Shown here one piece after another: positions 21,569 to 28,816 of a stretch of DNA of 64,000 bases. A program made the translations under genes and the position numbers. How positions within the stretch are numbered: the first letter of the stretch is position 1; each line of letters opens with the position of its first letter. The notes below the pieces were generated by a model. It did no database searches and was not told the origin of the DNA. It saw only the letters and a program-made list of their open reading frames with translations. The stretch comes from an uncultured Bacilli bacterium (GTDB lineage Bacteria; Bacillota_I; Bacilli_A; RF39; UBA660): the NCBI GenBank assembly GCA_934085585.1, contig CAKOHI010000007.1:5214-69213 (forward strand). Reading direction: 5' to 3'.

Positions 21569-21636
21569 ATTATCACTTCCTTATGGAATAATTATACAAA
21601 AAAAAGACAGATTAATCTATCCTTTTTTGAATATTT

Positions 21637-22926
21637 TTATGAGTTTTCAATAATATATGGATTTGTTTTTTTACCATTTCCTGATACATATTTCATATTT
21701 TCAGTTAAATAAAATACAGGTCTAGATGATAATGGATTAACACTAAAACGTATAGCATCAATTGTTCCTCCAATTGTAATTCCATTAGCATAATAATGCG
21801 AACACGCATAACAATACACTGATATTGTCCATTCATCTTGACTTACACTAGTATCGTTGTTACTTTGATGTAACCAAGAATTCAATAATGGATATGAATA
21901 GTCTCTCCATGCAGTTGTTTTTAATCCAATTTCTCCAAGGGAAAGTCCAATGTCAGAATCATACATCAAACCAATTAATCCTGGATAAGTACTTGCCTTC
22001 TTTTCTTTATTATAGGCATCTGTAAATGTACCACTATGACCTATAAAAGACTTATAATTCCAAGTTACAATCGCCGAATACCATGAAGTACTTGTTACAA
22101 AATATGGATACGTTGAGGTTTTTGTTAAATAATGGGATCCATTAATATTCCTTCTTATAGTGCTGGTTCCCCATGTGGCTTCACTATTTTTTGAATACCA
22201 TAGACTTGTATTTTTTAATTGTTTATATTTAATTAATTTTGTGTGATTAACACTTGATGAATCTTTGAATACTCCGATGATTCGATACATATAAACATCT
22301 TCATTTCCTAAGCAAGTGGTTTTATTTGTGGTACCAAAACATGCATAATTATCTGGAGCTTTTCCAATATATCTTAAACCATCACCACTTAAACTAGATT
22401 GCCAAACATCTCTTTTTAAAATGATATGTTCGTTTAGATTTTTCTCATCTACGATTGTAATTTTTTTAGATAAAACGTTTTTAGTATAAGGACTTATTGT
22501 ATTTATCTCTAATAAAACATCTGTTGAATCTGTAAATGTTTTACCATCCTTTTTAACAAAAGATATATTTAAATCTTTAGTATTTTTTTGTTTACCACTT
22601 ACAGTAATGGTAGTTTTTCCATCCGTAACTAAGGTATCATCTATAAGTAAATCAAATATATCAGAAGTTATACTTATTTCAAATGTAATGTCTAAATCTG
22701 TTTGATCATCAGTTATAAAATTATTTATTGAAACATTTGTTATTACACTTTGATTATCTTCAAGAACATATTTATCATATAAAACTGCACCATTAGCATA
22801 AAATTTATCACTAGTAATTTCTAATTTTTCTGAAACTCCATATTGATATTTACCTAAAGTATTGGATGCTTGCAACAATATTAATAAAAATATTGCAATT
22901 AATAAAAAATACTTTATTTTTTTCAT
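21637..22926 (-). CDS. secreted protein: fibre-subunit-like N-domain fused to the shared C-terminal module (putative tip adhesin of the SipW operon)
   Basis: Signal-like N-terminus (FLLIAIFLLILLQASNTLGKYQY). The C-terminal about 260 aa are paralogous to the C-terminus of ORF 12001-13824 (ACFGTTNKTTC..MYRIIGVF..KLIKY, IGLMYDSDIGLS, RPVFYLTENMKYVSGNGKKTNPYIIE). Last gene of the operon. Confidence 0.55.
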   Translation of the reverse strand: MKKIKYFLLIAIFLLILLQASNTLGKYQYGVSEKLEITSDKFYANGAVLYDKYVLEDNQSVITNVSINNFITDDQTDLDITFEISITSDIFDLLIDDTLVTDGKTTITVSGKQKNTKDLNISFVKKDGKTFTDSTDVLLEINTISPYTKNVLSKKITIVDEKNLNEHIILKRDVWQSSLSGDGLRYIGKAPDNYACFGTTNKTTCLGNEDVYMYRIIGVFKDSSSVNHTKLIKYKQLKNTSLWYSKNSEATWGTSTIRRNINGSHYLTKTSTYPYFVTSTSWYSAIVTWNYKSFIGHSGTFTDAYNKEKKASTYPGLIGLMYDSDIGLSLGEIGLKTTAWRDYSYPLLNSWLHQSNNDTSVSQDEWTISVYCYACSHYYANGITIGGTIDAIRFSVNPLSSRPVFYLTENMKYVSGNGKKTNPYIIENS

Positions 22927-22936
22927 TTTGCCTCCT

Positions 22937-23443
22937 TTATAGTTGTTCTATGTATGCATTAATCTTTATATAATCTGTTATATTTTGATATTCATATGAT
23001 GTATCTAATTCATTCCAAGAAATCTTTAAAACAAAGTCTTGGGTTTCTTTTATATCTTTATTTAATGTAAAATAATCTGTTTGATTGTTAGTTAATGGTA
23101 GTTCTGTTAATGTATCATTTTCTTTTTTATATAGTTTATATTCTAGTGGTAATTTATCATTTTCAAGGGAAATAGTTAAATAATATTTTAAGGTAATATC
23201 ATTAATTTCGTTATCATTAAAATTGGTAATGCTAAAATTTGTTTCAATTTCATTTGTTGGATTTATTTTATTTGCATTAGAAGATGTGACTAGATTAAAT
23301 ATTGGTTTGGCAATTTCAATTGAGCTTTCACTTTCATAGACACTTTTATAGCTTGCAAATGTATTATAACTGCAAAATATACTAATTAAAAGAATTAGTA
23401 TATTGGTAATTGCTATATTATCTATTTTTTTCATAATCGTCAC
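22937..23443 (-). CDS. small secreted TasA-like protein (putative minor fibre subunit)
   Basis: N-terminal hydrophobic helix ending CSYNTFASYKSVYESESSIEIAKP. It shares the Y-x(7-9)-S-x3-IAK(W/P) junction with ORF 24659-25228. The remainder is predicted to be all-beta. Confidence 0.45.
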   Translation of the reverse strand: MTIMKKIDNIAITNILILLISIFCSYNTFASYKSVYESESSIEIAKPIFNLVTSSNANKINPTNEIETNFSITNFNDNEINDITLKYYLTISLENDKLPLEYKLYKKENDTLTELPLTNNQTDYFTLNKDIKETQDFVLKISWNELDTSYEYQNITDYIKINAYIEQL

Positions 23444-23452
23444 TACCTTAAT

Positions 23453-23917
23453 TTATTTTCTTCTGCAATTTATGACTAGTGCTAGTAATATTAAAATTGT
23501 AACTATTTTATGTTTTAAAAATAAACCAATTATTCTTAATTTTAAAGTGTATTTTCCAATGATATCATCCTTTTTTATCGGAGTATCTTCAATATTATTG
23601 TTGTCTCCTTTAGTTACAATGTTATTTTCATTTAATTTTACAATTCGATGGGTTATGTATGAACTTTTTTCTTTATATGTAACAATATCTCCTTCTTTAT
23701 AGGTATTACTTTTTTTTACTAAAATATAGTCTCCTTTTTTCAATGTGCTTTCCATACTTTTTGATGCTACTTGAAATATATAGTATTTATTAAATATTGC
23801 AGGATTGCTTTTTTTAATTATTTTTTGATATGCAATAAATATTAAATAAATTACTAAAAATATTATTAAAACATATTTTATTACTTCTTTTAATTTTAAT
23901 AATTTTTCCTTATTCAT
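23453..23917 (-). CDS. sipW: signal peptidase I, ER/archaeal type (SipW-like)
   Basis: N-terminal TM helix. Ser box VASKSMESTL, His box YITHRIV, TKGDNNNIED box and a C-terminal TM helix. This is the SipW (Ser/His) pattern and differs from the P-type LepB at 268-750. Confidence 0.85.
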   Translation of the reverse strand: MNKEKLLKLKEVIKYVLIIFLVIYLIFIAYQKIIKKSNPAIFNKYYIFQVASKSMESTLKKGDYILVKKSNTYKEGDIVTYKEKSSYITHRIVKLNENNIVTKGDNNNIEDTPIKKDDIIGKYTLKLRIIGLFLKHKIVTILILLALVINCRRK

Positions 23918-24578
23918 AATATTCCTCAGCTGTTATATTAACATTTAAAGAATATTTGACATTATCTTCTTTGCCAATTTCAGTGTCGTTTTCACTTTCA
24001 AACCATTTCCATTCAAGGTAATAAGTATCACTTGTTAATTTATTTATCTTCTCATTTTCTAATATTAATTCTTCAGCGGTAACCCACTTTGTCTCATTGC
24101 CGATTAAATAATTTGTGTCATTTTTCAATCTGTATAACATATTAATGTTATAGGGATTTTCAGCATGAAATTTTATGTTATATGATAAATTATAATTAGT
24201 ACTATTTTTAACTATAAATTTGTATGTATTTGACGAATTTGGGGCAATAATACTTTTCATATTATATAAAGGATTGGCAAATACATTTATTTTTGTATCA
24301 CTTTGCCAAGTAAAATTATTGCTTTTTACAACAAACTTTCCAGTATCTTCATCAAATACTTGTTCTTCATTATTTTTATTGTTATCTTTATTATCTGGTT
24401 TACATGGTTTACACGTATTATCATTATCTTTATTGCAAGTACATTTAATTTCAAAAATATTTACATTATTATTGGGAAGATAAACTTCTTTTTGGTTTAG
24501 TTTATATAACAATAATATAATTATTATTAAAATAAATATAATTGTAAGATAAATAAATGATATATTTTTATTTTTCAT
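23910..24578 (-). CDS. membrane-anchored/secreted TasA-like protein with a Cys-rich linker (TapA-like accessory candidate)
   Basis: N-terminal TM helix, then the linker KCTCNKDNDNTCKPCKPDNKDNNKNN. The beta-rich domain carries IAPNSSNTYKFIVKNST, similar to MAPGSTASGEFTIDPTG in ORF 24659-25228. There is an 8-nt overlap with sipW. Confidence 0.45.
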   Translation of the reverse strand: MKNKNISFIYLTIIFILIIIILLLYKLNQKEVYLPNNNVNIFEIKCTCNKDNDNTCKPCKPDNKDNNKNNEEQVFDEDTGKFVVKSNNFTWQSDTKINVFANPLYNMKSIIAPNSSNTYKFIVKNSTNYNLSYNIKFHAENPYNINMLYRLKNDTNYLIGNETKWVTAEELILENEKINKLTSDTYYLEWKWFESENDTEIGKEDNVKYSLNVNITAEEYYE

Positions 24579-24634
24579 ATTTACCTCCGATTATTACTTT
24601 CAGTAAAAACTATAAATACTTTATAATCTTTATT

Positions 24635-24652
24635 GGAAGTAATAATACTTCC
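24635..24652. other. stem-loop between the first gene of the SipW operon and the rest
   Basis: GGAAGTA-ataa-TACTTCC lies 7 nt after the stop of ORF 24659-25228. There is no T-tract on the coding (minus) strand. A T-tract is present on the plus strand. Confidence 0.4.
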
Positions 24653-24658
24653 TATTTT

Positions 24659-25228
24659 TTAATCTATATGTTGTTTAACTGTGATATTTATTGGCAAATT
24701 AATTGTGCCTGCAGTTTTTCCTGTAGTTGTATCATTTTCATTATTAGTTTCATCGTTAGTCCATTCTACGGTTACTTTAACTGTAGTTAGTTTGTTAGCT
24801 AATGCATCATCTAATGAAATTGTACCAACATATTTTCCTTCACCATTTTTAGTTAAATCAACACCACCAACAGATAATGATTTAATAGCAATTTTGTTAT
24901 TAGTTATATTTGTTGTATCAATATTAACTTCATAATCTATTGCTACTTCAGAACCAGTTGGATCAATTGTAAATTCGCCACTTGCTGTACTTCCTGGAGC
25001 CATTTTTCCACTGGCAACATTAGTATTTTCATTGACGGTTAAAGTTAACTTTTGAGTAGAACTTAATTCGTTGCTGCCTTCTTTTACTGCTACTTGCCAT
25101 TTTGCTATTGTTACATCTGATGAGGTTTCGACTGTTGTTAAATATCTAGCATATGTATAAGTTCCTGCTGAAATAATTACCACTAAAACTAATAATGCTA
25201 ATAGAAAAACATAGTCTCTTTTTTTCAA
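24659..25228 (-). CDS. secreted TasA/camelysin-like protein (putative major fibre subunit)
   Basis: TTG start 5 nt after GAGGAGGAAG. The signal-like N-terminus LLALLVLVVIISAGTYTYARY is followed by SSDVTIAKW. The body is Thr/Asn/Val-rich and beta-like, with no Cys. First gene of the operon, behind the best promoter. Confidence 0.5.
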   Translation of the reverse strand: MKKRDYVFLLALLVLVVIISAGTYTYARYLTTVETSSDVTIAKWQVAVKEGSNELSSTQKLTLTVNENTNVASGKMAPGSTASGEFTIDPTGSEVAIDYEVNIDTTNITNNKIAIKSLSVGGVDLTKNGEGKYVGTISLDDALANKLTTVKVTVEWTNDETNNENDTTTGKTAGTINLPINITVKQHID

Positions 25229-25286
25229 AATACTTCCTCCTCTCTTGTTTATTTAGGGATTGTTTTGTTTGTCTTTTCTCTACCCT

Positions 25287-25323
25287 ATAATAGAATAATA
25301 TCATTTTTTGTCGAACAATGCAA
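25287..25323 (-). promoter_or_regulatory. putative sigma-A-type promoter of the SipW operon
   Basis: On the minus strand: TTGCAT (25323-25318), 17 nt, TGaTATTAT (extended -10, 25300-25295). An overlapping alternative is TTCGAC-17-TATTAT. It sits about 60-70 nt upstream of the TTG start. Confidence 0.45.
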
Positions 25324-25377: not shown

Positions 25378-26385
25378 TTATAATTCGTCTTTTAAGGCAT
25401 TAATTTCTTCGATAGATAATTTAGTAATTTCGCTAATATCTTCGACGGAAAAACTCTTCCTTAACATAGCTATTGCAGTTTCTTTGGTGTTTTCTAAACG
25501 GCCTTGTTCACGACCTTCAGTTAGTCCTTGCTCACGGCCTTCAGTTAGTCCTTGCTCACGGCCTTCAGTTAGTCCTTGCTCACGGCCTTCAGTTAGACCT
25601 TGTTCACGGCCTTCGGTTAGACCTTGTTCACGGCCTTCACTTAGCCCTTGCTCACGACCTTCAGCTAATGCTCTTTTTCTTTGTTCTTCTCTTGAATCTT
25701 CATCTTCTAATATTTCTCTGTTATAAAAAAGCAATTTATCAAATTCATCTGTTTGGGTATTTACTTCTCTGATTATCTTGGCCATAAACTCATCTCCATC
25801 ATATACTTCTTTCATCTTTTCTTTATCATTACATATAAGCAAATAAAGTAATTTCTCTAAAGACTCTTTGTCTTCCTTAACTATAGTATAATCTTTATCA
25901 AGAATTTTTGCAAGATTTATATCGTATATTTCAAACATTGGATGGATTTCTTCGTGTGATTCTATATCAAGTATCTTACTTATTACAACAAATCTCTTAT
26001 CTTTAGTTACACCATAAGTATTCAAGTTTATTTGGTACACTTTCTTATACTTATTAGTGTAATCTGAAGATTTTTTTGTTTGTCTTAAAACCAACTGACA
26101 AATATAATTATTATTTTTTCTTTCTATTTTACTTCCTTTTGAACTATTTATTTCAATATTAACTATTACTTCATCATTTTGTATTGCTAAATCTATTTCA
26201 CTATTAACAATGTTTTCATTAACACTTACAACGGGATGAATTAAAGTAAAAGTAAAATCTTCATATGAAAAGCCTAAAACCTTACAAACAATCATCGCCA
26301 GATAATCAAGTCCAGCATCCGTAGATGTCAAAATATTTTTGATAATTGAATCTCTCGAAGGCACTTCTTTTATCTTGAGAGTCAT
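25378..26385 (-). CDS. Rpn-family recombination-promoting nuclease / putative transposase (PD-(D/E)XK)
   Basis: The N-terminal two thirds have the Rpn/PDDEXK_2 pattern (IDLAIQNDEVIVNIEINSS ... NNYICQL ... VYQINLN). The C-terminus has E-G-x-x repeats followed by ...VEDISEITKLSIEEINAL, typical of Firmicutes Rpn proteins. Confidence 0.65.
   Translation of the reverse strand: MTLKIKEVPSRDSIIKNILTSTDAGLDYLAMIVCKVLGFSYEDFTFTLIHPVVSVNENIVNSEIDLAIQNDEVIVNIEINSSKGSKIERKNNNYICQLVLRQTKKSSDYTNKYKKVYQINLNTYGVTKDKRFVVISKILDIESHEEIHPMFEIYDINLAKILDKDYTIVKEDKESLEKLLYLLICNDKEKMKEVYDGDEFMAKIIREVNTQTDEFDKLLFYNREILEDEDSREEQRKRALAEGREQGLSEGREQGLTEGREQGLTEGREQGLTEGREQGLTEGREQGLTEGREQGRLENTKETAIAMLRKSFSVEDISEITKLSIEEINALKDEL
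25502..25669. repeat. 7 x 24-bp in-frame tandem repeat (encodes EGREQGL(T/S) x7) inside the Rpn-family gene
   Basis: Units counted directly: 25502, 25526, 25550, 25574, 25598, 25622, 25646. Units 2 and 3 are identical and the others differ by 1-4 nt. The block is locally much more GC-rich than its surroundings. Confidence 0.95.
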
Positions 26386-28297: not shown

Positions 28298-28816
28298 TTA
28301 TTTTGGCCACTCTTCTTTAGTAGTACAAGTAAATCTTGAATCGTTATCAATCTTATCCCCTGATTTAACATAGTCTTTAATATCTGTTGTTGCAATTTCG
28401 GATGATGTTTTAAAATCATCTCCTGCTCCAGCACTTATAACCATAAGTTTTTGGTTAGTCATTGAAACAACGTACAAATAATTTTGACCAGATTTTTTAA
28501 CTAAAATTTTACCTACATAATCTTTTTTACTTTTAAAGTCTCCGTTTGTCACTAATTCTTGAATCGTTAAACACACAACCTTATCATCTTCTGTTGGAAA
28601 TGTTTTATTGCCCGTTGCTGTTAATGCTGAATTCATTAAATAAGAAGAAGCTGCATTAATTGCTTCGTTTGCTTCCATTGTAAATACTTGTTTTCTAGCG
28701 TCGTTCATTCTTGGAACAACAGCCATTGAAGCCATTAAGATAACGATAGCTAAAACTACGATAACTGCTAGTAATTCGATTAAAGTAAAACCATTTGCAT
28801 TTTTTATATTTTTCAT
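28298..28816 (-). CDS. type IV pilin / pseudopilin (prepilin-type N-terminal methylation domain)
   Basis: MKNIKNANG/FTLIELLAVIVVLAIVILMA is the canonical G/FTLIE prepilin cleavage-methylation motif, followed by a 150-aa globular part. Strong SD. Confidence 0.85.
   Translation of the reverse strand: MKNIKNANGFTLIELLAVIVVLAIVILMASMAVVPRMNDARKQVFTMEANEAINAASSYLMNSALTATGNKTFPTEDDKVVCLTIQELVTNGDFKSKKDYVGKILVKKSGQNYLYVVSMTNQKLMVISAGAGDDFKTSSEIATTDIKDYVKSGDKIDNDSRFTCTTKEEWPK

Follow-up and report, generated by a model that had tools for sequence, protein, structure and literature searches.

The 64,000-nucleotide stretch of DNA from an uncultured Bacilli bacterium that is analysed here (contig CAKOHI010000007.1; hereafter the window, whose numbering is used throughout) carries between 21637 and 25228, on its minus strand, five tightly packed, co-directional open reading frames (ORFs) of 189, 222, 154, 168 and 429 amino acids (aa) in order of transcription. 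The third ORF encodes a signal peptidase of the SipW type; the other four are referred to below as the structural proteins. We think it fairly likely that the operon represents a dedicated peptidase together with its own secreted substrates, and that these would assemble as a membrane-anchored, sortase-independent surface fibre of the TasA or BsaA kind. An initial annotation of the window had described a minus-strand operon of five genes that starts at a TTG behind a strong Shine-Dalgarno sequence, with one overlap of 8 nucleotides (nt) and otherwise short gaps near 10 nt, all of which the sequence (G+C content about 25%) confirms. The genes are as follows.

24659-25228, minus strand: gene 1, 189 aa, with a TTG start after the strong Shine-Dalgarno sequence GAGAGGAGGA
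23910-24578, minus strand: gene 2, 222 aa
23453-23917, minus strand: gene 3, 154 aa, SipW-type signal peptidase I
22937-23443, minus strand: gene 4, 168 aa from a GTG or 165 aa from an ATG
21637-22926, minus strand: gene 5, 429 aa, with an N-terminal part at 22435-22926 (residues 1 to about 164) and a C-terminal module at 21637-22434 (about residues 165-429)

Genes 2 and 3 overlap by the 8 nt ATGAATAA (23910-23917), a spacer of 80 nt follows gene 1 and the other intergenic gaps measure about 10 nt. For gene 4 the ATG at 23434, which yields a protein of 165 aa beginning MKKIDN, is a more likely start than the GTG that yields 168 aa, and the shorter length is used here to name the protein. The peptide motifs that had been picked out of the translations (AGTYTYARY, NTFASYKS, NTLGKYQY, S-x3-IAK(W/P), (M/I)AP(G/N)S and KCTCNKDNDNTCKPCKPD) are all present.

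Linkage of the structural genes to a signal peptidase

The product of gene 3 scores 93.7 bits against TIGR02228, the model for archaeal-type signal peptidase I (curated cut-off 51.85 bits), and matches PF00717 at 5.2e-11. It has hydrophobic segments at its N- and C-terminus, and its residues S54 (in SKSM), H90 (in THRIV) and D105 (in GDNN), which we take to be catalytic from what is generally known of SipW, are aligned with those of its relatives. Its score of 61.4 bits against NF046067, the equivalog model for Bacillus SipW, lies below the cut-off of 190 bits, and the sequence comparison points to an enzyme of the same type as Bacillus SipW that is not its orthologue. The product of the ORF at 268-750 is a signal peptidase I of the usual bacterial type (TIGR02227, 148.8 bits; cut-off 47), and the enzyme of the operon is therefore a second, dedicated one, in agreement with the earlier proposal of a peptidase of the endoplasmic reticulum (ER)/archaeal type beside LepB at 268-750.

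The linkage of the structural proteins to the peptidase is the strongest result of the analysis. A genome scan built on 12 closer sequences of the family of the 189-aa protein yielded 58 genome loci with a gene of that family, from different species and retrieved with two peptide patterns only, so that one part of the family is sampled. In 50 of the 58 the 189-aa-family gene has one or more SipW-type ORFs no further than 6 kb away, and most of the other eight represent short contigs or else fused copies that belong to one metagenome-assembled genome (MAG). The comparative genomics of the sipW neighbourhood that the initial annotation had recommended thus finds the neighbours conserved along with the peptidase. 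All four classes of gene (189-like, 222-like, 165-like and peptidase) occur together in 17 loci. Relatives at 52-95% identity retain the module in flanking contexts that differ: the nearest genome relative, a MAG of uncultured Bacilli that comes from a gut sample of the Hadza, has 95% identity and the same flanks, the relative at 73% identity has the same five genes between other flanks, and in the one at 52% the module comprises seven genes, with a second peptidase and one more paralogue. Single genes for 375-380 aa in three genomes (L036:5606-6733, L039:6530-7672 and L040:6545-7675) fuse the peptidase to a protein of the 165-aa class, and the 165-aa-class part of these fusions has its own hydrophobic segment, a cleavage-like motif and an LKPGD strand. 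Such fusions argue for a joint action of the two proteins.

These observations bear on the possibility that gene 3 encodes a general second housekeeping peptidase lying by coincidence among four unrelated membrane proteins with uncleaved anchors. The assignment of none of the four to a curated family would be compatible with a chance arrangement of this kind, as would promoter-like matches no commoner than chance expectation (see below). It is already contradicted by the synteny statistics, and we regard it as extremely improbable in view of the co-occurrence just described, the peptidase-substrate gene fusions and the translational coupling indicated by the overlap and the short gaps, together with a signal motif that is held in common with TasA at the same residue number and the paralogy of three of the four proteins, both of which are described in the next section.

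Two kinds of variation in the peptidase part of the locus were also observed. Two or three S24/S26-like paralogues are found at many related loci (L010:6457-7011, L012:6464-6994, L014:793-1419 and many of L016-L072), and some of these paralogues, as judged by eye, have no SxSM serine box and may be inactive accessory or chaperone-like proteins. Loci L005, L006 and L007 represent the same locus as L001, at 98.6-99.2% identity, with a clean deletion of 2,835 bp (L001 8252-11086) by which genes 1 and 5 come to be joined in frame, the junction lying at a microhomology of 13 bp. The deletion creates a 264-aa chimera (P0010), and the peptidase, anchor and minor subunit are lost; this allele is a natural loss variant.

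Signal peptides, N-terminal extensions and a common body domain

Three of the structural proteins have a motif of the SipW-substrate type, which reads T25-Y-A-R-Y in the 189-aa protein, T25-F-A-S-Y in the 165-aa protein and T23-L-G-K-Y in the 429-aa protein, and none is found in the 222-aa protein. The corresponding reference motifs are T25-W-A-A-F in TasA and T25-Y-A-Y-F in CalY-like proteins; the CalY/TasA homologues used came from plasmids of the B. cereus group, and the TasA sequence used agrees exactly with PDB 8AUR over residues 28-261. When scored as [TS][YFWL][AGS]x[FY] after the hydrophobic core, the motif is present in 243 of 265 members of the 189-aa family, as compared to 11 of 265 shuffled N-termini. 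Mature TasA begins at A28 in PDB 8AUR, which places its cut between the two alanines of T25-W-A-A-F, and the cuts predicted for the window proteins fall after A27 (189 aa), A27 (165 aa) and G25 (429 aa), with the 222-aa protein predicted to stay uncut. The initial annotation had counted four SipW substrates and had described a basic stretch, a hydrophobic helix and an aromatic junction in all four proteins. The description holds for three; the 222-aa protein is without the aromatic junction motif and looks uncleaved, which reduces the predicted substrates to three.

The curated model for the SipW-dependent signal-peptide class, TIGR04088 (cut-off 19 bits), is passed by two relatives of the 429-aa protein, P0026 (22.1 bits) and P0033 (20.6 bits), and gives a single match (0.003) among 78 diverse members of the 189-aa family. 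A profile-profile comparison of the full-length 189-aa family with TasA/CalY by hhalign returned a probability of 48% (P 1.8e-4), and the score collapses when the signal peptides are taken away, which means that the similarity of this family to TasA resides in the signal peptide. The reading of the full-length match as a TasA-like body was rejected, since the score without signals, 15.3, is within the range of the column-shuffled controls (up to 18.8). Matches of relatives of the 429-aa protein to PF12389 were likewise rejected as indications of a TasA-like body, as they are confined to residues 10-39, in the signal peptide.

From the predicted cut onwards, a gap-free alignment can be made of the three cleavable proteins together with their orthologues (73% and 52% identity), and they have in common [R/K/S]-Y at positions +1/+2, a Lys at +16 and W, P, F or M at +17. 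The signatures of this extension are ..VTIAKW44.. in the 189-aa protein, ..IEIAKP.. in the 165-aa protein and ..ITSDKF.. in the 429-aa protein, and a W is found exactly 16 residues past the predicted cut in 240 of the 243 members of the 189-aa family. The 189-aa protein can be divided into a signal peptide (residues 1-27), the conserved extension (28-52) and a beta-sandwich body (53-189) with the motifs GK(M/I)APG and W-x-N-x-E-x-N-N-x-x-D-T. A first AlphaFold2 (AF2) model of this protein, from an alignment of 6 sequences, was too poor for use (predicted local distance difference test, pLDDT, 59.6); a second, from 74 sequences (pLDDT 73.1), has a seven-strand beta-sandwich. Residues 25-52 are among the most conserved of the protein, yet they are unplaced in the AF2 monomer (pLDDT <50). 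For residues 28-38 of BsaA from Clostridium perfringens, monomer models show disorder where multimer models have the donor strand (PMC11580942), and TasA and its archaeal relatives polymerise by strand donation (PMC9674648, PMC9245690). A donor-strand order of assembly is therefore proposed for the window proteins.

Two loops of the 189-aa family, at residues 66-80 and 156-170 of the protein encoded by gene 1, are near-invariant (N-x-N-V-x-x-G-K-(I/M)-A-P-G and W-x-N-x-E-x-N-N-x-x-D-T) and rich in Asn, Asp, Glu and Lys. By analogy, they could be a calcium site, as in CanA and AbpX, or an isopeptide triad, as in N35/E56/K74 of BsaA.

The 189-, 222- and 165-aa proteins appear from profile comparison to be paralogues with one body domain. 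With signal peptides removed, hhalign relates the C-terminal domain of the 222-aa class to the body of the 189-aa family with a probability of 95.4% (P 1.7e-8; maximum score after shuffling, 16.5), the 165-aa class to the 189-aa family with 95.1% (P 3e-8) and the 165-aa class to the 222-aa class with 93.3% (P 2.7e-7). A local jackhmmer search that was started from the mature 165-aa protein and run against the 1,067 ORFs of the loci recovered 143 of them, all components of the module (93 189-like, 22 165-like and 20 222-like proteins, 3 peptidase fusions and 5 neighbouring ORFs).

The 222-aa protein itself consists of an N-terminal transmembrane helix, an NVNIFEIKC motif, a Cys-rich linker and a C-terminal body homologous to that of the gene 1 product. 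In its class the cleavage motif is absent from all of the 18 members, and each of them has a basic N-terminus and a transmembrane helix, followed in nearly all by a motif of the type (T)GNVDIF(D/E)I; at least 2 Cys residues are present in the linker in 12 of the 18. All have the shared body domain, and the gene usually stands directly after that of the major subunit (19 loci). By these sequence features the proteins of the 222-aa class look like membrane anchors that are left uncleaved. The 165-aa protein is predicted to be a minor subunit, and its class is the one that appears closest to TasA.

The 189-aa family is large and has escaped annotation, as the initial annotation had suspected. A word-indexed search with the 189-aa protein detected only ten close relatives; an exhaustive profile search, counted as representatives of clusters at 50% identity, detected 1,687 at E<=1e-3 and 616 at E<=1e-10. 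Members are mostly 185-220 aa long, some of them being fused to longer C-termini. No match to any of the four structural proteins was found in Pfam, NCBIfam, PHROGs or PDB sequences (the last also searched by profile), and no Pfam or NCBIfam family is assigned to any of 78 diverse members of the 189-aa family. Where the sources give these proteins a name it is "hypothetical protein", in MAGs that bear the labels Bacilli, Erysipelotrichaceae or Clostridia, and the family is almost confined to MAGs of uncultured Bacilli and Clostridia from gut and rumen, some of which are labelled Tenericutes or Mollicutes. A tblastn search of plasmids with the 189-aa protein gave no match, and no description of the family or its module was found in the literature. 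Two other identities were considered for the proteins and dropped. The name given by JGI to one relative echoes the wording of TIGR04088 and suggests a precursor of a ribosomally synthesised and post-translationally modified peptide, an identity that does not suit proteins of 165-429 aa with folded domains, and a phage fibre is not indicated by any PHROG match or by the chromosomal context.

Probable remote kinship to TasA and the proposed fibre

The TasA comparison was based on a profile made from the mature parts of 45 TasA/CalY representatives that a scan of metagenomes had supplied. Against this profile the 165-aa class gives an hhalign probability of 40.9% (P 2.8e-4) and a score of 32.5, collinear over 134 columns, as compared to a maximum of 16.0 in 100 column-shuffled controls. 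When a hidden Markov model (HMM) of mature TasA was run against the 1,067 ORFs, the top matches were all proteins of the module, mostly of the 165-aa class, and the reciprocal search agrees; several of these matches fall in two collinear segments, one at the LKPGD strand and the other at the C-terminal YQG..Q strand. Sub-threshold matches of PF12389 to the body occur in 5 of 10 relatives of the 165-aa class (11.5-17.3 bits; gathering cut-off 22.5). A Foldseek search with the better AF2 model lists the TasA entries 5of2, 8aur and 5of1 at ranks 10, 25 and 39 (E 0.025-0.053, template-modelling score about 0.3), and the BsaA model TIGR04090 matches one of the 78 members of the 189-aa family (2.3e-6); the search for that member among ten likely candidates showed that it was none of these. 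We read the signal of the 165-aa class as indicating a probable, remote membership of the TasA superfamily, which the 189- and 222-aa proteins would reach only through the 165-aa class, by a link that is weak and reproducible. Of the earlier suggestion that the proteins are TasA-like, it is this indirect connection that survives, the direct profile tests having turned out negative and the fold search placing TasA only among many generic beta-sandwiches.

The 429-aa protein had been described as the fusion of a subunit-like N-domain to a large Cys-containing module. The second half of that description stands: the C-terminal module (about residues 165-429) is an independent Cys-containing domain with invariant C196 and C205 and the sequence ..RPVFYL.. 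near its end; the N-domain could not be related to the other three proteins. The module has 73 homologues, mostly of 500-750 aa and many with the canonical SipW-type signal GGTYAYFS; none of the 73 has a precomputed Pfam domain, and neither the single sequence nor a profile matches a PDB sequence. Weak DUF6273 matches in 3 of 59 aligned members offer a lead only. One 746-aa protein (P0020, L008:8001-10241) contains the module twice, and it is also found in proteins of about 500 aa with GGTYAYFS (such as P0023, L009:8001-9572). At the P0020 and P0023 loci there is no gene with a signal-peptidase Pfam domain within 8 kb, and processing is therefore ascribed to a peptidase elsewhere in those genomes. 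The module is a candidate adhesin or ligand-binding tip.

From these elements the following course of assembly can be envisaged. All four structural proteins would be inserted by Sec via their N-terminal hydrophobic segments, and the peptidase, with S54, H90 and D105, would cut the 189-, 165- and 429-aa proteins after the small residue of the motif T-aromatic-(A/G)-x-(Y/F) that they display. Cleavage would release the extension of about 25 residues, which might then enter the beta-sandwich of a neighbouring subunit and serve there as the donor strand; in the 189-aa protein the extension up to W44 is the predicted donor strand. The 222-aa protein, which has the same body and would remain uncut and held in the membrane on its Cys-rich stalk, might serve as the proximal acceptor and anchor of the fibre. 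The 189-aa protein would be the repeating subunit of the shaft and the 165-aa protein a minor subunit, and the 429-aa protein, with a donor-type N-terminus and a separate C-terminal module, might cap the fibre as a tip adhesin. The roles that had been assigned in the initial annotation (major subunit, anchor, minor subunit and tip adhesin) fit with the consistent lack of the cleavage motif and the shared body in the 222-aa class, and with the independence and wide distribution of the C-terminal module of the 429-aa protein.

A number of results weigh against a fibre of the TasA or BsaA kind. The profile searches that had been recommended as a check, of the four proteins against PF12389 and TIGR04088, gave no match at E<=1; PF12389 is also without a match among the 78 relatives of the 189-aa protein, and no protein of the window reaches any of the curated models for TasA, BsaA or the SipW signal (PF12389, TIGR04087, TIGR04088, TIGR04090). 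The mature 189-aa family compares with TasA at background level (P 0.036-0.12 over two comparisons, one of which gave the score of 15.3 cited above), the best link to TasA has an hhalign probability of only 41%, and the body is shorter than that of TasA (about 137 as compared to about 210 aa). In the Foldseek search nothing was found at E<=1e-3, and the TasA entries stand amid PliG, sortase-pilin domains, carbohydrate-binding modules and viral jelly rolls. No kinship of the N-domain of the 429-aa protein could be detected, whether with TasA, with the three other classes (189, 222 and 165 aa) or with the N-domains found in the 500-aa relatives, and the C-terminal module occurs as well in proteins that do not adjoin any SipW gene. 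Finally, all of the organisms with the module are uncultured.

In an alternative reading the peptidase would be dedicated to clients that do not polymerise: it would mature surface proteins, each secreted or tethered to the membrane on its own, that form a coat, a matrix or a set of adhesins and no donor-strand fibre. The evidence for linkage of the proteins to the peptidase fits this alternative equally well, the fold search gives generic beta-sandwiches only, and proteins with the C-terminal module exist alone, with SipW-type signals and no neighbouring subunits. There is also a precedent in C. perfringens, where BsaB and BsaC, encoded by an analogous operon, form no long polymers (PMC11580942). 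What non-polymerising clients would hardly explain is an extension of fixed length that is kept in register over three divergent classes of substrate and three lineages and yet is unplaced in the monomer. The uncleaved paralogue with the same body, encoded right after the major gene in 19 loci, suggests assembly, and the characterised members of the TasA superfamily named in the papers cited here all polymerise by strand donation. On balance we consider a set of non-polymerising clients unlikely.

The fibre reading can be carried further. We propose, as a tentative possibility that we consider less likely than the general reading, that the module specifies an undescribed, ordered, heteropolymeric pilus of the TasA superfamily that is common in uncultured gut and rumen Bacillota of low G+C content. 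An uncleaved paralogue of the subunit, able only to accept a strand, would be its membrane anchor, the shaft would be homopolymeric, strand-donating terminal subunits would have other bodies, one of them a new adhesin module, and cleavage by the SipW-type enzyme would act as the donor-strand switch. Such a structure would be the counterpart, free of chaperone, usher and sortase, of pili built from tip, shaft and anchor.

Operon context and comparison with known systems

The following features of the minus strand accompany the genes.

25323-25295, minus strand: promoter-like hexamers TTGCAT-17-TATTAT, overlapping TCGACA-16-TATTAT at 25314-25287 (reading of the sequence and scan)
24602-24652, minus strand: two stem-loops in tandem within the 80-nt spacer that follows gene 1 (minimum free energy, MFE, -17.4 kcal/mol, z -3.96)
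21597-21628, minus strand: terminator-like hairpin with A-run and U-run flanks at the 3' end of the operon (MFE -15.1 kcal/mol, z -3.98)

The hexamers of the good promoter that the initial annotation had described are present, but they are not distinguishable from chance, as the window contains 41 promoter-like matches where 34.9 +/- 5.8 are expected in DNA of 25% G+C. The terminator-like hairpin was overlooked by a pattern scan because its stem is poor in G-C pairs. The double stem-loop after gene 1 has equivalents in the relatives at 73% and 52% protein identity (z -3.56 and -5.89), and a five-sequence consensus of it has 21 pairs, 2 with compensatory changes. Its nucleotide sequence (GGAAG..CUUCC, AAAGAUUAUA..), which was also located at L001:8565-8657 and L016:6505-6590, is better conserved than that of the coding regions on either side, and it matches no Rfam family at the gathering score. 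The structure may be an attenuator, a processing site or a stabiliser that sets the ratio of the shaft subunit to the other proteins, and in the proposed fibre it might raise that ratio in favour of the shaft.

The genes that immediately adjoin the operon have no relation to it: mscL, a gene for an rRNA methyltransferase, one of the Rpn family and one with an HD domain. This context bears on the possibility that the module is associated with spores, where TasA/CotN and SipW of B. subtilis also act; its proteins would then be located at the spore surface or form spore appendages and not fibres on vegetative cells. PDB 5OF1 titles TasA "spore coat-associated protein N", and one distant relative of the C-terminal module is encoded near yunB- and yutH-like sporulation genes. 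In the window and at L001, L010, L012 and L015 the operon has no sporulation genes seen beside it, and with housekeeping genes (mscL, the rRNA methyltransferase gene and pheST) as its neighbours we consider a spore-associated system improbable.

Two other genes near the operon deserve mention. Directly upstream of the promoter region lies a gene of the Rpn family of nuclease/transposase-like proteins (25378-26385, minus strand; TIGR01784, 52.1 bits) that holds about 8 tandem copies of the 8-aa unit LTEGREQG; its absence from L015, which is otherwise syntenic with the window, suggests a recent insertion. About 3 kb upstream of the operon there is a gene for a GspG-like pilin of the prepilin type (GFxxxE) at 28298-28816 (minus strand).

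Among known systems, the logic of the operon appears by analogy to be that of tapA-sipW-tasA, with an especially near counterpart in sipW-bsaA-bsaB-bsaC. Like tapA-sipW-tasA of B. subtilis and sipW-tasA-calY of B. cereus, it contains an ER/archaeal-type peptidase within the operon. With tapA-sipW-tasA it has in common the motif T-aromatic-A-x-F/Y at residues 25-29, cut after the A, beta-sandwich subunits without LPXTG and an accessory or anchoring partner; and the 165-aa class is weakly collinear with the mature part of TasA/CalY over the LKPGD and C-terminal YQG..Q strands. Besides having a shorter body, the window proteins differ from TasA in a longer extension with its own AKW signature, and, unlike the B. 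subtilis operon, that of the window has an extra minor subunit and an adhesin fusion, and its candidate for the anchor is not of the TapA type but a subunit paralogue whose transmembrane helix looks uncleaved.

The C. perfringens operon sipW-bsaA-bsaB-bsaC encodes SipW, two TasA-like proteins and a large VWA protein (PMC11580942), and thus likewise combines a SipW with two paralogous small Ig-/TasA-like proteins and one large protein of the adhesin type. BsaA has a signal at residues 1-27 and an N-terminal segment, disordered in the monomer, that is the proposed donor strand; mutation of the predicted isopeptide residues N35 and K74 abolishes its oligomers, and the polymer is attached to the membrane and not to peptidoglycan (PMC11580942), as would be the proposed fibre of the window. 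Secretion of BsaC requires the type IV pilin PilA3 (PMC11580942), and a type IV pilin gene is also found nearby in the window (28298-28816). Unlike BsaA, the window proteins have no match to TIGR04090. The module of the large window protein is faintly DUF6273-like, unlike the VWA domain of BsaC, and follows a donor-type N-terminus; an uncleaved anchor paralogue is present, and the N-E-K isopeptide triad has not been identified in the window proteins.

In the archaeal TasA superfamily (AbpA bundling pili, Saci_0406 threads, CanA cannulae, AbpX and tafi) small, beta-rich subunits form donor-strand polymers without chaperones (PMC9245690, PMC11821415, PMC12337348, 10.64898/2026.01.04.697558). Tafi are multi-subunit fibres of haloarchaea (PMC11821415), and fibres of this superfamily with several subunits and with candidates for tip and anchor are known from these organisms (PMC11821415, PMC12337348, 10.64898/2026.01.04.697558); at tafi loci genes for a membrane anchor and for a predicted tip or adhesin are common, and abpX loci encode a signal peptidase I and accessory proteins (10.64898/2026.01.04.697558). 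The earlier view that the window operon is richer than the modules described is accordingly dated, given sipW-bsaA-bsaB-bsaC (PMC11580942) and tafi (PMC11821415). The Asn/Asp-rich loop WTNDETNNENDT of the window resembles calcium-binding loops as judged by eye, and the module of the window is bacterial and Sec-dependent, unlike tafi, which depend on Tat. The archaeal structures lie outside the top 50 Foldseek matches.

Sortase pili resemble the proposed fibre in their logic of shaft, minor subunit and tip, and Foldseek matches the model to the pilin domains of LrpA and EbpB with probabilities of 0.84-0.96. Unlike sortase pilins, the four proteins have no C-terminal LPXTG signal in their translations (the LPLTN of the 165-aa protein is internal), no sortase gene is among the annotated neighbours of the operon, and the peptidase is of another kind. 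The type IV pilin model TIGR02532 (prepilin motif G-F-x-x-x-E, cut after the G) does not match any of the four structural proteins.

What is new in the module, as compared to these systems, is the large unmodelled family, the conserved uncleaved anchor paralogue, the extension that is kept in a fixed register on unlike bodies, the adhesin fusion and the restriction to uncultured gut and rumen Bacillota. A family of at least 1,687 clusters at 50% identity that is tied to SipW-type peptidases and has no Pfam or NCBIfam model represents a blind spot of annotation. The analysis provides seed alignments for three new family models, and the natural fusions of peptidase and substrate can be used as guides to experiments. 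If the proteins do form fibres, these would give a little-known part of the gut microbiota one of its chief ways to attach to surfaces or to build a matrix, the adhesin domains would gain a new candidate, and donor-strand assembly of the TasA type would be extended to a multi-subunit architecture of anchor, shaft and tip.

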